Shown here: in pieces, positions 7,242-53,300 of the stretch
Position numbering within the stretch: the first letter of the stretch is position 1
Layout: every line of letters starts with the position of its first letter
Source: an uncultured bacterium
GTDB taxonomy: Bacteria; Patescibacteriota; Minisyncoccia; Phycocordibacterales; GWA1-40-21
Reading direction: 5' to 3'
DNA length: 64,000 nucleotides
Assembly: GCA_903822075.1 (NCBI GenBank)
Contig: CAIJNK010000004.1
Span: 12,661 to 76,660, forward strand
Made by a program: the position numbers and the translations under genes
The notes under the pieces: model-generated
The model's input: only the letters and a program-made list of their open reading frames with translations
Database searches by the model: none
Told to the model about the DNA's origin: nothing

Positions 7242-8594
7242 TTAAAATTCACCCTCGGTTCCCTCCAATCTTTCATCAATCCGGTTCATATCGCGAGGGA
7301 AAATGACGGCCTGACGGACGTTTGGCAGGTTCAGAAATTGCATCACCAACCTTTCCGCGCCAAAAGCAAATCCGCCCTCCGGTGGCACGCCGTATTTAAA
7401 GGCCTGCAAAAACATAGTGATGGTTTTTGGATCAAGATTCCACTCCTTAACATGCTTCTCCAGTTGTTCAAAATTATTTATGCGCCGGCCACCGCTTGAC
7501 AGTTCCCGTCCGCGACAAATCATGTCCAAGCCTTCATTGAATTCTGGTTCAGCTGGATTTGGATAAACGTAAAATGGTTTTTTCTTGGTAGGATAGCCGT
7601 AGACGAACACAAAATCCGAGCCGGTTTCTTTTTTCACTATTTCGCAAATTTCCACTTCATCTTGCGAAGAAAGATCCTTGTCACCCCGGTTATCACGCTT
7701 GTAGGCCTCAAATATTTTCTGCTGGGCCTCACGCAACGACATGGTGGGCGTCTTATCAAGCATGACAGGCAATTCCACCCCCAGTATTTTTAAATGCTCG
7801 GCATTATTCTTTTTTATCTGCTCCAAAATATATTTAATCGTTTTTTCTTCCATATCCCTTATATCAGTCCAGGAATCAATGAAGGCCATCTCGGCATCCA
7901 AAGAAATAATTTCCGTCAGGTGACGAGTAGTGGCGCTTGGTTCGGCGCGGAAAATTTTGTTGACAGAAAAACATCTTTCAAAGGCGCTCATCACAATCTG
8001 CTTGTAGAGCTGTGGTGACTGAGTCAGGTAAGCGGCCTTGTTGAAATAACCGATTTTAAACACTTCTGCTCCGCCTTCTGCGGTGGCAGGGACGATGCAT
8101 GGTGCCTGGAACTCAAAAAAGCTTTCATTTTTCATGATCTCCCTAAAACTATCAATCACAGTCTCCAGAATTTTAAATACTGCCTGGTTTCTTGGGTGAC
8201 GAAGGGTGAGGGCGCGATTATCAAGCTCCGTTATCAAGTCCAGATTAAAGCCATCAGCCGACATGTCAAAAGGTAATGGTGCCGCTTCGGCTAAGATGGT
8301 GATTTTTAAAATTTCGAGCTCAATATTGCCATTCAAAATCCCGGCCTTCTTGTTTCTTTCCGGACGCTCATTCACTTTTCCATTCACTTCCACCACAAAT
8401 TCCTGGCGCAGTTTTTTTCCTTGCTCCAGCGCCTCGGTCTGATTTGGCAAAATAACACCCTGAACAATTCCGGTCATGTCCCGAAAATCCAGGAAAATCA
8501 TTTTCCCCTGATCACGTCTGATATTCACCCAACCCTTGATCATAACCTCCTCCCCTACTTTTGTGCCCAATTCTTTTATATATGTTCTTTTCAT
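7242..8594 (-). CDS. aspS: aspartyl-tRNA synthetase, archaeal/eukaryal type (class IIb), possibly non-discriminating
   Basis: N-terminal OB fold; motif 2 FRAEPSATTRHLTE, motif 3 GGFAFGAERLVMQFLNLPNVRQAVIFPRD; FKYGVPPEGG is typical of archaeal-type AspRS rather than AsnRS; Asp-like T-box specifier upstream. Confidence 0.6.
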   Translation of the reverse strand: MKRTYIKELGTKVGEEVMIKGWVNIRRDQGKMIFLDFRDMTGIVQGVILPNQTEALEQGKKLRQEFVVEVNGKVNERPERNKKAGILNGNIELEILKITILAEAAPLPFDMSADGFNLDLITELDNRALTLRHPRNQAVFKILETVIDSFREIMKNESFFEFQAPCIVPATAEGGAEVFKIGYFNKAAYLTQSPQLYKQIVMSAFERCFSVNKIFRAEPSATTRHLTEIISLDAEMAFIDSWTDIRDMEEKTIKYILEQIKKNNAEHLKILGVELPVMLDKTPTMSLREAQQKIFEAYKRDNRGDKDLSSQDEVEICEIVKKETGSDFVFVYGYPTKKKPFYVYPNPAEPEFNEGLDMICRGRELSSGGRRINNFEQLEKHVKEWNLDPKTITMFLQAFKYGVPPEGGFAFGAERLVMQFLNLPNVRQAVIFPRDMNRIDERLEGTEGEF

Positions 8595-8761
8595 ATTATT
8601 ATTTTTATTTAATCAAAAATCGCCCTTACAAAATTACCATAATTGATAATCTTGTAAGGACGATCTGTATCGTGGTGCCACCTTACTTGCTTCTTAATTT
8701 ACCTTCGAAGACTCCACCTTATCATCGGTTTCAACGTCTATGTCTTGATAATATCACCTCC
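8595..8761 (-). promoter_or_regulatory. T-box riboswitch leader (antiterminator/terminator switch) controlling aspS
   Basis: Minus strand: A1 GTAAGG, 7-nt bulge UGGCACC, A2 ACGAU-acag-AUCGU, A1' CCUUAC, i.e. the canonical AGGUGGNACC T-box antiterminator. An alternative 11 bp terminator (cguccuuacaa/uuguaagggcg) plus U-tract precedes the ATG. Candidate specifier GAC/GAU followed by A in stem I. Confidence 0.75.
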
Positions 8762-9748
8762 TCAATAAATATCAACCCCCACCGCCTTTCTTACCATATC
8801 CATCTTCTTTTCCGCTCGCATAGAAGCCCTTTGGCCGCCAGCTTTCAGGATATCAAAAACGGTGTCCAAATCATGTACCAGCATCTCTCTACGCTCTCTC
8901 ATTGGCCTAATAAAGGCCTCCAAAGCCTCAATTAGCCCTTCCTTGGCCTCTTTATAGCCCAGGCCACCATTTGTGTATTTCAGGGCTAAAATTTGCCTAT
9001 CCGCGTTGTTTAGAAGAAGCCTATGAATATTATAAATATGGTTGGTCTCGGTATCTTTAGGCTCGGCTACGCCCTTGGAATCGGTCGGGATACTCATGAC
9101 CGCCTTCTTGATTTCTTCGTAAGTGGCAAAAAGCGGGATGACGTTGCCATAACTTTTGCTCATTTTTCGGCCATCGGTACCCGGCACGGTTTCCACATTT
9201 TTTAAAATCAGTGGTTCGGGTAATTTAAATATTTCAGAATTAAAAACGTTATTAAATTTCTGGGCGGTGTCGCGGGCATATTCCACGTGTTGTTTTTGAT
9301 CCTGGCCTACGGGCACCACATCCGCATCTTGCAGTAAAATATCCGCCGCCATCAATAGCGGATAATCAAAAATCCCCACATTTATTTCTTTGTTTTTGGC
9401 CTCCGCGTCCTTGTAAGCATGGGCGCGCATCAGATATGGCATGGTGGTAATACAATTGAAAATCCAATTCAGTTCATGCACTTGTGGCAGATCAGACTGT
9501 TTGAAAAGTACTACTTTTTTAGGATCAAGACCGATAGCCAGATAATCCAAAGCCACATCGATTATTCCTTGGGACATTTGCTCTTTATTCTGAACGGTGG
9601 TCACGGCATGATAATCGGCAATAAATACGTAGCTTTCATACTCGTTTTGTAACTCGACAAATTGCTTCATGGCGCCAAAATAATTACCGATATGCACTCG
9701 GCCCGTCGGTTTTACTCCGGATAACAGAATTTTCTTTGAATTTGACAT
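8762..9748 (-). CDS. trpS: tryptophanyl-tRNA synthetase
   Basis: 328 aa class I aaRS; HIGH-like GVKPTGRVHIGNYFGA, KMSKS (KMSKSYGN). Confidence 0.85.
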   Translation of the reverse strand: MSNSKKILLSGVKPTGRVHIGNYFGAMKQFVELQNEYESYVFIADYHAVTTVQNKEQMSQGIIDVALDYLAIGLDPKKVVLFKQSDLPQVHELNWIFNCITTMPYLMRAHAYKDAEAKNKEINVGIFDYPLLMAADILLQDADVVPVGQDQKQHVEYARDTAQKFNNVFNSEIFKLPEPLILKNVETVPGTDGRKMSKSYGNVIPLFATYEEIKKAVMSIPTDSKGVAEPKDTETNHIYNIHRLLLNNADRQILALKYTNGGLGYKEAKEGLIEALEAFIRPMRERREMLVHDLDTVFDILKAGGQRASMRAEKKMDMVRKAVGVDIY

Positions 9749-18907: not shown

Positions 18908-18984
18908 TGGTGGGTAAGACGGGACTTGAACCCGTAACCCTTGGTTCCACAAACCAATGCTCTAGCCAATTGAGCTACATACCC
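18908..18984 (-). tRNA. tRNA-His (anticodon GTG), CCA encoded, no encoded G-1, apparent A73
   Basis: Cloverleaf folded by hand: acceptor GGGTATG/CTTACCC (one U-U), D-arm GCTC-AATTGGCTA-GAGC, anticodon arm TTGGT-TTGTGGA-ACCAA, T-arm ACGGG-TTCAAGT-CCCGT, then A-CCA; 10 nt downstream of hisS. Confidence 0.7.
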
Positions 18985-50388: not shown

Positions 50389-53300
50389 TCACCGGCACCC
50401 CAACGCCCCCTTGGCCGCCACCACCTTATTTGCCGGTATCACGTCAATGCTAATCAAAAGATCAATAAACTGACAGACTGAAACAGAGGGTTGAGTGGCC
50501 ACTGTTTCCTGCTTCAAGATATCATTAACATACTTAATGGTACCCAGACCAAAGACACCAGTACCTTTGGTGACACCAGCGGGTTTGAGGATTTCGTTGT
50601 AATGAGCAGTCTGGAAGCGGATGAGAGCGAGTCTGGTGGCATCATTGAAGTAAGTGGTTTCGTGATTAGGAGAACTGGTACCGGTGGTGGCAATGATGAA
50701 GTTATGAGTGTTAAGGAAGATTTGGAGTTGTTTGATGTCGGAATCAGTGGTATAGGGATTTAGGATATGGGTGAAGAGGAAGGGAGGGGCGGAGGTGACG
50801 GTGGCGGTAAAGGTAGAAGTGGCCAGGGTGGAAGTAGCGGTGGTGGTGGCTAGGGGTTTGGGGATGACTGGTGGCGGAGTACCGCCACCACTGCTACCTC
50901 CTCCGCCCCCTCCGGTAGGAACATATGTACAAGTTTGTGAGAGGACGGGACTGCCGCCTGTACAACCATCCGGTGACGAAGTGACTACGGTGTGACCTTG
51001 AGTTCCCGAAACAGGACAGACAGCCGGAGACCAGGCAGAGTAGGTGAAGGAGGTGCAAGTTTGGGGAGTGGGCGGAATTTCGGTTTTTGATATTTGATAA
51101 ATGTGGACTTCACCCGGCATAAATGAATCGCTGAAAGCGCCGCCAGTCATATTTATTGTTCGGTTGCTTTCACCATAAACATTAACTGTTTTATCGGCCA
51201 GATCGGAAACATTAAAATTAACACTAGTGGATGTGCCGGACATTTCACCAATCTCGCTTAATCTGGTGGCAAAAATCCAAATATCCGAATCGGTTTCTTT
51301 TATCATGGTGTCAACCCGGTTACCATCGGCATTTGCATCATCCGTAACCGCGTGAGTTGAGTTTGAACCCAAAACGGCGGGCGCTAATGTCTGCATATCG
51401 GTAACAAATTGTGAAATAACAGCGGCGTTGTCTGTTGGGATGTCAATCCAATTATTATTTATGGAATCATAATTATACCAACTTATTCCCTTCATGCCAT
51501 GGATAACATTTAACCATATCTCCATTTTTAACAACTCTGGCGTCAAATGAGGCTGGGTCGAAGACATATCACAAGCCTCCACAAATGAAGTAAAAGGGGT
51601 TAATCCAAAATTATTTTTTTGGAATTCATCCATTATGGAAGTATACTGGCTCATCGTCATCTGAGTGTCTCCATTGCTTGCCCAAACGGGATAAACGTCA
51701 AAAGAAAGAATATCAGCCACAGGCTCCAAAGAAAGATAGCCTTTAGTCTTTGTGACGTCCGGAACGTAGCCGTAAAGATTAAGAATGTTTGGATGATTTG
51801 GATCGTTCACATGAGAGATGGCAGTATACAAGTCCATTAAAGCCGGGGTATAAAAAGAAGTTTTAAGATCCGGCTCATCCGCCCAAGTCCAGAATAGAAG
51901 TGACTGATTATTTCTAAATGTCGAAGTGTACTGCGCGATTGTATTAGGCGCATTTGTCGTCAGGTAATTTGGATATCTCGAGTCCGGCCCAAACGTTTTT
52001 ACGCCAAGGCCAGAGACTGTCTGCAAATAACTTGTAAACTCGTTCACTGAATAGTTTGCGGACCATAACGGGTTCCAGCTCGCCACGTTAATCAGATTAG
52101 CCGCCAACATGCCTGAAAGTTTATTTGTATCAGGCGGATAGAACAAGCCAACCGGAAAAATCTTCACACCATTGCTCAATAAATTATTATCCTTATCTAT
52201 GGAGACGAAAGGGGTTCCCGAAACATATTTTGTTAAAGTGGTTGTAGCACTGTACTTTTCAGTGTTCTGACTATCCAAAAGTTTTACAACTAAAGAATGA
52301 TCACCCACCGACAGTGGGACCATGTCTACGGCAAATTTTTCCCGGCCGACTAAATTTGAAATTGTTATATACAGTAAACCATCAAGTGAAGCGACTATCG
52401 TGTCGCCGGTCGAATACCCAGTCAAAGCCAAATCGATATAAAGTGAAGAATGAGCAAAAGAATTAGCGTGACGAATATTAATAAAAGAAGACTGGTCGAC
52501 AATCGGACTGGCGCTAAATGCCGTATCGTCAAAATAAATTGTTCCTCCGTTACCAACCTCAGAACCAGTTTTGTCCATCCCCATCACGAAACGGCTGATA
52601 TTGCCAATTGTGGCATTTATCATGGAAATTTCCGTATTACCGTTAATTTTAGCTGTGAATGCACCCGTTCCGGTTCCGGTCTGATATTCTATGTCCAACG
52701 GATACCAATGCCCACGAATCAAAGGTGTTGCCACGGAAGCGCACGCTCCGCCGGTGGCAAGGCAAAAAGAATCGGCATTTATTTTGTTTAAATAAATTTT
52801 TTTCACAGAGTTATAACTACCATCTTCTAAATTCAGAAAAACAATTTTTGGAGAACTGGCATTGCCCAAGACGAAATCATTGCCTAAATAAAAATAAATT
52901 TGCGCATAGGCGTGCGGCCCGAAGTATTCGTTCTGGTAAAACCAGGCTTTATTGCTTGACGCAGGACTGACTTGCGTGATTGCTGAGTATAATCCGGAAT
53001 GGGCCACAACAGTACTGACCGAGATTACACCAGTACCTGACTGACCGGTATATGATAAGTTTGGTAGATCTCCAACCTCAAAATCTTCATATAATAGTGG
53101 CTTACTGCCATCTGGTATAAAATTGGCAATAATATTTTTATTTGAACTCATGGTTAAGGCTAAGGGATTTTTTGTGGTAGCAACATCTCCTGACCAGGAT
53201 GAAAAGATATAACCGCTCGCGGGCGTGGCCGTCAAGGTGACGGTATCGCCAAAGGCATAAGTGGTGGAAGCCGAGGAATTATCTATCGTTCCATTGGCGG

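Follow-up and report, generated by a model that had tools for sequence, protein, structure and literature searches.

A probable T-box leader of reduced architecture, without Stem II, upstream of aspS in an ultra-small bacterium of the Patescibacteria

The spacer between trpS and aspS in an ultra-small bacterium of the Patescibacteria carries the signature of a T-box, and the question raised by this locus is whether so reduced a leader could still sense a tRNA. In the present study, the window (the whole stretch of DNA that was analysed, 64,000 nt) was compared with aspS loci from GTDB species representatives (L001-L080), metagenomes (L081-L119), and contigs encoding close homologues (L120-L135). 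Herein, we propose that the spacer is probably a transcription-attenuating T-box of reduced architecture that senses uncharged tRNA-Asp. In this proposal, we infer that a tRNA is bound and which tRNA it is, where the promoter lies, and that the leader can still switch in the absence of the platform of Stem I, of Stem II, and of the hairpin of Stem III.

The features of the locus are collected in Table 1; in addition, trpS is preceded by two histidine kinase genes, and aspS is followed by scpA. The match to NCBIfam NF003483 bears out the sequence-only reading that aspS encodes an archaeal-type class IIb enzyme, and this family assigns the product as an aspartate--tRNA(Asn) ligase, i.e. a non-discriminating AspRS. 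The nearest homologues, from Paceibacteria and Patescibacteria metagenome bins, carry the same label. Two public protein records of 433 aa (P0001 and P0002) begin at an internal ATG (8543-8541) with GGAGG just 5' of it. The homologues measure 450 aa and share a conserved N-terminus, in which R3 and I6 do not vary; the true start of aspS is therefore likely the ATG at 8594, where a Shine-Dalgarno sequence is not visible. Two plus-strand ORFs over the spacer (8561-8935 and 8421-8612) were rejected as spurious because they have no significant Pfam match (the best was weak, E = 0.14) and are antisense to trpS and aspS. A scan of the 64-kb window for tRNA genes gave tRNA-His (GUG; 18908-18984, minus strand) alone, with neither tRNA-Asp nor tRNA-Asn, and a scan of 60 related loci gave one tRNA-Glu and again neither tRNA-Asp nor tRNA-Asn.

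Table 1. Positions of the genes, leader elements, and repeated 17-mer discussed in the text (positions are those of the window unless a locus is named)
Feature	Position	Strand	Basis
trpS, upstream gene, 328 aa	9748-8762	-	TIGR00233, 297 bits, cutoff 177
Promoter-like site, predicted	8748-8775	-	Consensus match, 10/12, TG present
trpS-aspS spacer, 167 nt	8761-8595	-	
Ultrashort Stem I, 31 nt	8709-8739	-	Minimum-free-energy fold and covariation in 21 orthologous leaders
K-turn (GA motif), 5' strand	8730-8735	-	Sequence signature
Specifier GAU (Asp), 8723-8721, then conserved purine A8720	8720-8723	-	Alignment of 21 leaders
Single-stranded linker	8687-8708	-	Leader alignments
Antiterminator	8654-8686	-	Sequence, RF00230, fold, covariation in 11 leaders
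Intrinsic terminator, ~20-bp hairpin (8664-8619) and U-run (8619-8615)	8615-8664	-	Pattern scan, fold
aspS, regulated gene, class IIb archaeal-type, 450 aa	8594-7242	-	NF003483, 458 bits, cutoff 353
AUCAUGUCGAAAGAUUU copies in relatives	L081 1137-1153; L113 433-449, 498-514; L115 830-846, 895-911; L124 1153-1169		

The antiterminator is the most readily recognized part of the leader, and the helices and bulge named in the sequence-only reading are present letter for letter. A1, GUAAGG (8686-8681), pairs with A1', CCUUAC (8659-8654), over 6 bp, and A2, ACGAU/AUCGU (8673-8669 with 8664-8660), forms 5 bp closed by the loop ACAG; these two helices flank the 7-nt T-box bulge UGGCACC (8680-8674), which has the form 5'-UGGN-ACC-3'. 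In an alignment of 11 leaders, A1 pairs in 100% and A2 in 98% of cells, with changes on both sides, and all five helices of the leader together are 96% paired. For the A2 pair adjoining the bulge (8673/8660), the window has A-U, and many relatives with leaders of the L115 type have G-C. In T-boxes, this pair is usually a G-U wobble, described as a steric sensor of the aminoacyl group.

The leader has two alternative folds. When the 3' strand of the terminator is left out (8746-8652), the minimum-free-energy structure consists exactly of Stem I and the antiterminator, at -15.3 kcal/mol. For the full leader, the terminator is the fold obtained, at -40.4 to -43.7 kcal/mol (z = -4.35 against shuffles), approximately 25 kcal/mol more stable than the antiterminator form. 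The 5' strand of the terminator reuses the 3' strand of A2 together with A1', and the two forms exclude each other. The competition claimed earlier was thus recovered (-15.3 vs -40.4 kcal/mol), but the description of the terminator had to be revised: the stem comprises 20 pairs in the pattern scan, 6 of them G-C, about double the 11 bp that had been given, and it does not stand just before the ATG, as its U-run ends 20 nt 5' of the start codon. This order of elements, a hairpin and then a U-run that stops short of the ATG, is not that of a Shine-Dalgarno sequestrator, and no Shine-Dalgarno sequence was found within or after the terminator hairpin.

Upstream of the linker, the 5' region of every leader opens with a short hairpin composed of a lower helix, an asymmetric internal loop, an upper helix of 3-4 bp, and an apical loop of 6-8 nt. 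In the window, this hairpin reads AGAC-GUUGAA-ACC-GAUGAUAA-GGU-GGA-GUCU (8739-8709), in which the lower helix AGAC/GUCU joins 8739-8736 with 8712-8709, the upper helix ACC/GGU joins 8729-8727 with 8718-8716, and the 8-nt apical loop spans 8726-8719. A K-turn lies at the base of Stem I, as indicated by its sequence signature in 21 leaders: a 3-nt bulge, GUU, is followed by G8732 and A8731, which would face A8713 and G8714 of the 3' strand GGA (8715-8713) as tandem sheared pairs. The residues G8, A9, G27, and A28 and the closing pair C4-G29 are invariant in 21/21 leaders of the MAFFT alignment, making the K-turn the most invariant part of Stem I. Both helices of Stem I covary. In the almost gap-free MAFFT alignment of 21 Stem I segments, which leans toward pairing because the segments were picked by eye before alignment, 92.8% of cells pair, compared with 69.5% in shuffles, and 41 cells are changed on both sides, compared with 12 expected. 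Neither value was reached in any of 500 shuffles, and slid controls pair in 23-49% of cells.

The apical loop of this short hairpin displays the specifier. Columns 18-20 of the 21-leader alignment read GAC, GAU, or AAC, with an invariant middle A, and column 21 is always A or G; the window has GAU-A at this position, which matches the amino acid of the gene product, a non-discriminating AspRS. The loop of L089 is identical, and that of L001 is UAUGACAC. The sequence-only reading had considered an Asp specifier probable and had asked for a Stem I whose specifier loop presents GAC or GAU; the hairpin forms, and its loop shows GAU. This reading had also placed both GAC-A and GAU-A in Stem I, which holds for GAU-A (8723-8720) but not for GAC-A (8744-8741), located 5' of Stem I. 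The Asp assignment is right because the aligned triplet is GAU and the sole AAC of the leader (8730-8728) overlaps the K-turn and the upper helix. The upper helix of 3 bp and the loop of 8 nt stand in place of a long Stem I with a distal platform, and neither an AG bulge nor a distal loop is present.

The membership of this leader in the T-box family depends on how the search is made. No T-box match was obtained with RF00230 at the gathering threshold, so that at this curated cutoff the leader does not pass the RF00230 check that the sequence-only reading had set for itself. The cmsearch run suggested in the sequence-only reading reveals the leader in E-value mode alone, with a match at 8653-8803 (minus strand) of 33.5 bits against a gathering score of 93 (E = 8e-6 when a region of 501 nt is searched, and E = 0.001 when the search covers all 64 kb of the window). 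Almost all of this score comes from the antiterminator; just 18 nt stand for 88 interior Stem I positions of the model, and at its upstream end the alignment extends into the trpS coding sequence. In addition, a covariance model (R2) built from six Stem II-bearing leaders, all of other genomes, matches 8652-8741 (minus strand) with 62.9 bits and E = 1.8e-13. The RF00230 and R2 matches together support the claim of a T-box-family leader, but the words canonical and textbook do not fit an element that scores 33.5 bits against 93 and lacks the distal platform, Stem II, and the Stem III hairpin. All 17 tested leaders of relatives score 22-50 bits with RF00230; standard Rfam annotation therefore misses every tested member of the family. 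No second T-box was found in the window, where all other matches in the Rfam E-value scan and with two clade models, filters off, had E >= 0.4. Two matches of a regular expression were discarded: one at 52313 (plus strand) has no T-box context and was scored by none of the models, and the other (L019:1900) lies inside an ORF.

The failure at the gathering threshold could also be taken to mean that a trpS terminator resembles a T-box by chance. This explanation, to which we assign next to no probability, is refuted: the independent R2 model recovers the element, all helices covary, and the element is kept at orthologous positions in dozens of contigs, even where the upstream gene is not trpS. 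Orthologous aspS leaders from other Paceibacteria carry the same T-box element. The T-box core with its terminator is present upstream of aspS in 13/80 species-representative loci and in nearly all relatives whose AspRS is at least 84% identical.

The reduction of the leader is concentrated between Stem I and the antiterminator. The first ~8 nt of the linker, UCGAAGGU, are variable and occupy the Stem II site of relatives, and the remainder, AAAUUAAGAAGCAA (8700-8687), is purine-rich and conserved and is the counterpart of the purines that flank Stem III. In most relatives, Stem I is followed directly by a Stem II hairpin, GGGG-AAGAAA-...-AGUAGAA-CCCC, in which the elements GAA and AGUA match the S-turn signature; no IIA/B pseudoknot was found after the Stem II of these relatives. 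In the alignment of 11 leaders, the Stem II block is cleanly deleted in the window, L001, L089, L131, and L080, and the 30 Stem II positions of model R2 correspond to 7 nt of the window, which has neither Stem II nor the pseudoknot. These results confirm the earlier supposition that Stem II is missing. Stem III is likewise absent as a hairpin: the purine flanks AAAUUAAG...AA (8700-8687) are kept, with just 4 nt (AAGC) between them, as in many other leaders, and a hairpin occurs at this position in some relatives (L113, L093, and L133). An alternative 4-bp Stem III suggested by the Rfam alignment (CUUC at 8710-8707 with GAAG at 8693-8690) was discarded, since it would compete for bases with the lower helix of Stem I, which covaries; its partner bases are not complementary in L001, L089, or L131. 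Counted from the 5' end of Stem I through the 3' end of A1', the core measures 86 nt in the window (8739-8654), 83-86 nt in minimal leaders, 110 nt in Stem II-bearing leaders, and 130-229 nt in relatives with further insertions.

A predicted sigma-70-like promoter overlaps the trpS stop codon (8764-8762), with a putative -35 element TTGATA (8775-8770), a 16-nt spacer, and a putative extended -10 element TGaTATTAT (8756-8748). The predicted transcription start lies 1-3 nt 5' of Stem I, the leader from the predicted promoter to the U-run would be about 127 nt long, and relatives have a TGnTAnnAT motif at an equal distance from Stem I. No terminator was found between trpS and the leader by pattern scan, so trpS read-through transcripts would meet the T-box too. 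In the mechanism proposed herein, transcription would start at this promoter or read through from trpS, and the first 31 nt would form the K-turn hairpin, whose apical loop may offer GAU-A to the anticodon GUC of tRNA-Asp. A purine-rich linker of ~22 nt would lead to the antiterminator, in which 5'-UGGC-3' of the bulge could pair with the free 3'-GCCA end of the tRNA. Uncharged tRNA would hold the weak antiterminator (-15 kcal/mol) until the polymerase has passed, and the non-discriminating AspRS would be made; otherwise, the ~20-bp terminator (-40 kcal/mol) would form and transcription would stop at the U-run.

The identity of the tRNA requires consideration of both substrates of the enzyme. 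The anticodon of tRNA-Asp is GUC and that of tRNA-Asn is GUU, and G73, which fits the bulge UGGC, occurs in both tRNAs of well-studied bacteria. The GAU specifier would give a U-G wobble with G34, which counts against the tRNA-Asp reading, and C-ending specifiers are preferred in >85% of two-codon families in TBDB (PMC7778990). The effector might instead be tRNA-Asn, or both tRNAs, since the enzyme, as assigned by NF003483, charges both, the discriminator base suits both, and eight related leaders have AAC-A in the aligned loop position (L081 (966-1079), L086, L088, L090, L091, L093, L002, and L130). Despite these points, we consider this alternative very unlikely for the window, because its triplet is GAU, with which the anticodon GUU could pair only if the first codon position formed a G-U wobble, and because its only AAC is taken up by the K-turn and the upper helix. 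Sensing of tRNA-Asp is thus the preferred reading of the window leader.

In the family as a whole, both specifiers are in use. Among 24 leaders parsed by eye, the specifier is GAC or GAU in 17/24 and AAC in 7/24, the AAC of L130 having been found later, and the bulge is UGGC or UGGU in Asp- and Asn-specifier leaders alike. Leaders with AAC and with GAC/GAU are interleaved on the AspRS tree, among orthologues 84-93% identical to the AspRS of the window. This switching between Asp and Asn specifiers fits an enzyme that charges both tRNA-Asp and tRNA-Asn, and a non-discriminating AspRS seems to be tied to either tRNA substrate in different lineages. The interleaving also limits what the T-box says of the enzyme. 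The sequence-only reading had used the T-box to assign the synthetase as AspRS, and the Asp specifier agrees with this; however, the NCBIfam assignment is to a non-discriminating enzyme and orthologues with AAC leaders exist, so the T-box alone cannot tell a discriminating from a non-discriminating AspRS.

Published work on T-boxes leads to a different expectation for such a leader. Transcriptional T-boxes generally depend on the platform of a long Stem I, truncation of Stem I leaves hardly any tRNA binding unless Stem II is present, and an antiterminator without Stem III shows no appreciable tRNA binding, such that Stem III is indispensable (PMC7583486). The window element conflicts with these results because it is of the terminator type, yet lacks the platform, Stem II, and the Stem III hairpin. 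One explanation is that the loss of Stem II and Stem III ended sensing and left a decayed T-box, whose sole role between trpS and aspS would now be that of an insulator or of a partial terminator that acts constitutively. These published requirements, the ~25 kcal/mol advantage of the terminator, and the origin of the minimal form by deletion, as indicated by the alignment, all favor such decay. However, a plain terminator needs no K-turn, specifier loop, or UGGCACC bulge, and these elements are invariant or compensated over a distance at which synonymous sites are saturated. Leader identity between the window and L001 is 82%, and between the window and L089 81%, while only 38% (L001) and 31% (L089) of four-fold degenerate sites in aspS are identical to those of the window, which amounts to saturation; this difference argues for a maintained function. 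A single stretch of the leader is fully diverged, namely the scar of ~8 nt where Stem II would be; it has changed freely (UCGAAGGU in the window, and GAGUUUAG, CUGGGUAG, and GAGUGAA in the others) and serves as an internal neutral control. Moreover, compensatory changes are observed in L089, both in the upper helix of Stem I (ACC/GGU in the window, GCU/GGC in L089) and in the terminator (C-G to U-A). The minimal form also recurs in five lineages, one of which is a 60%-identity outlier. These comparisons argue that the Stem II-less form is under purifying selection rather than a dead relic, and we regard decay as quite unlikely.

A second explanation is that the switch needs a helper, e.g. a K-turn-binding protein of the L7Ae family or another factor, which would supply the affinity for the tRNA that other T-boxes owe to the platform, Stem II, and Stem III. 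The K-turn is the best-conserved part of Stem I, the remaining RNA gives the tRNA just 3 + 4 base pairs, and L7Ae-family proteins such as YbxF may stabilise the K-turns of T-boxes (PMC7583486). Against this, L082 and L131 differ by Stem II alone, which suggests that the RNA tolerates its loss without a matching change elsewhere, and we consider a helper unlikely, though less so than decay. As a third explanation, we tentatively hypothesize that the 86-nt core is a self-sufficient T-box, in which the 3-bp anticodon contact, the 4-bp NCCA contact, and the purines of the linker together would suffice to recognize tRNA-Asp and its charging state during transcription, with no need of an elbow platform, an S-turn in Stem II, a pseudoknot, or a hairpin at Stem III; this could be true, though the odds are somewhat against it. 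We rank the sufficiency of the remaining RNA, maybe by way of the linker purines, tentatively above a helper factor, and a helper factor above the loss of sensing.

The five Stem II-less leaders are independent of one another, and on the neighbour-joining tree of AspRS, minimal leaders are intermingled with those that carry Stem II. In L082 and L131, Stem I is identical and the discriminator nearly so, the difference being the Stem II block. Both observations indicate that Stem II has been lost or exchanged several times. The leaders of L082 and L131 are almost identical outside this block, the unstructured 5' UTR tail included, while the four-fold sites of their aspS genes are merely 57% identical and the upstream genes differ; this pattern is a hint that lineages have recombined or exchanged the leader. 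Several other parts of the leader also vary among relatives. Extra hairpins are optional in the 3' strand of Stem I (L002, L088/L125-L127, and L130), in the A2 loop (L083/L128/L133), and at the Stem III position in the three relatives named above. Judging from these alignments, the leader family behaves as a modular series in which Stem II is optional too. A DUF1653 gene (72-107 aa), sometimes with an ORF of ~50 aa, lies between the T-box and aspS in L001, L083, L124-L130, L133, and L135, and the leader of these relatives would therefore control a small operon; the window has aspS immediately after the leader, with no intervening gene. Between the T-box terminator and the DUF1653 ORF, relatives also have a short hairpin and, after it, the exact 17-mer AUCAUGUCGAAAGAUUU, sometimes twice in tandem (Table 1), of which the window has 0 matches with up to 3 mismatches allowed.

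The reduced leader shares features with several known T-boxes. With the class I transcriptional T-boxes (RF00230; Bacillus subtilis tyrS and glyQS), it has in common the UGGNACC bulge, a mutually exclusive intrinsic terminator, the basal K-turn of Stem I, a specifier followed by a purine, and an aminoacyl-tRNA synthetase gene downstream. It differs from them in the absence of the long Stem I with its AG bulge, distal loop, and tRNA-elbow platform, and of Stem II, the IIA/B pseudoknot, and the Stem III hairpin; in the location of the specifier in an apical loop instead of a side bulge; in the A-U pair beside the bulge instead of the usual G-U; and in its core of 86 nt and its RF00230 score (33.5 bits vs 93). 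The glyQS-type T-boxes without Stem II likewise have a single-stranded linker from Stem I to the discriminator, but keep the long Stem I platform and Stem III, both of which the window lacks. Stem II and the IIA/B pseudoknot are absent only in glycine T-boxes, and glyQS relies on strong GGC-GCC pairing, whereas the pairing in the window would be the weak GAU-GUC, with no platform (PMC7583486).

The specifier in the apical loop of a short, platform-less Stem I recalls the actinobacterial translational T-boxes, for which this placement is described (PMC7583486). The ileS T-boxes (Sherwood et al. 2015; structures from M. tuberculosis and N. farcinica, according to PMC7583486 and PMC12647780) share with the window the short Stem I and apical specifier, and they also have the K-turn below the specifier and no elbow-binding platform (PMC7583486, PMC12647780). 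However, they are translational, with a Shine-Dalgarno sequestrator in place of the terminator used in the window, and they depend on the S-turn in Stem II together with the IIA/B pseudoknot and keep Stem III, all of which the window lacks (PMC7583486, PMC12647780); in relatives of the window, Stem II has the S-turn signature, and the pseudoknot is missing. For M. tuberculosis ileS, structural work was done on a core of 166 nt (PMC12647780). In TBDB, the search with the short-Stem-I model was confined to Actinobacteria and to sequences that the Rfam model had detected beforehand (PMC7778990). The AAC relatives of the window have a further counterpart in Firmicutes. The NT-box is reportedly a full-size Firmicute T-box ahead of an operon that includes a non-discriminating AspRS. 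This Clostridium acetobutylicum element (Saad et al. 2012, 2013, cited in PMC4574755) is, like the leaders of these relatives, an Asn-specifier T-box on the tRNA-dependent asparagine route; the close relatives of the window differ in alternating single Asp and Asn specifiers in a miniature Stem I.

The family is clearly derived from T-boxes and is therefore not a new kind of system. In full-text literature, to which subscription journals may add, no published T-box was found in CPR, Patescibacteria, Parcubacteria, or Saccharibacteria, and the available literature gave no terminator-type T-box with an apical-loop specifier, no platform, optional Stem II and Stem III, and no pseudoknot. This leader family extends T-boxes to the Patescibacteria. 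T-boxes are the model system for the recognition of one structured RNA by another, and with the window leader nature offers a test of how small an RNA may be and still read a tRNA. Its close relatives amount to a deletion series of natural origin, in which Stem II and Stem III are each present or absent and the specifier is Asp or Asn; this series supplies ready-made constructs for defining the minimal requirements of tRNA sensing. The switching of specifiers, in turn, illustrates the way in which one or the other of the two tRNA substrates can be coupled to a non-discriminating AspRS. If the 86-nt core is indeed self-sufficient, it would be the smallest natural T-box, and modules regarded as essential would be optional accessories, gained and lost between close relatives within the Patescibacteria.
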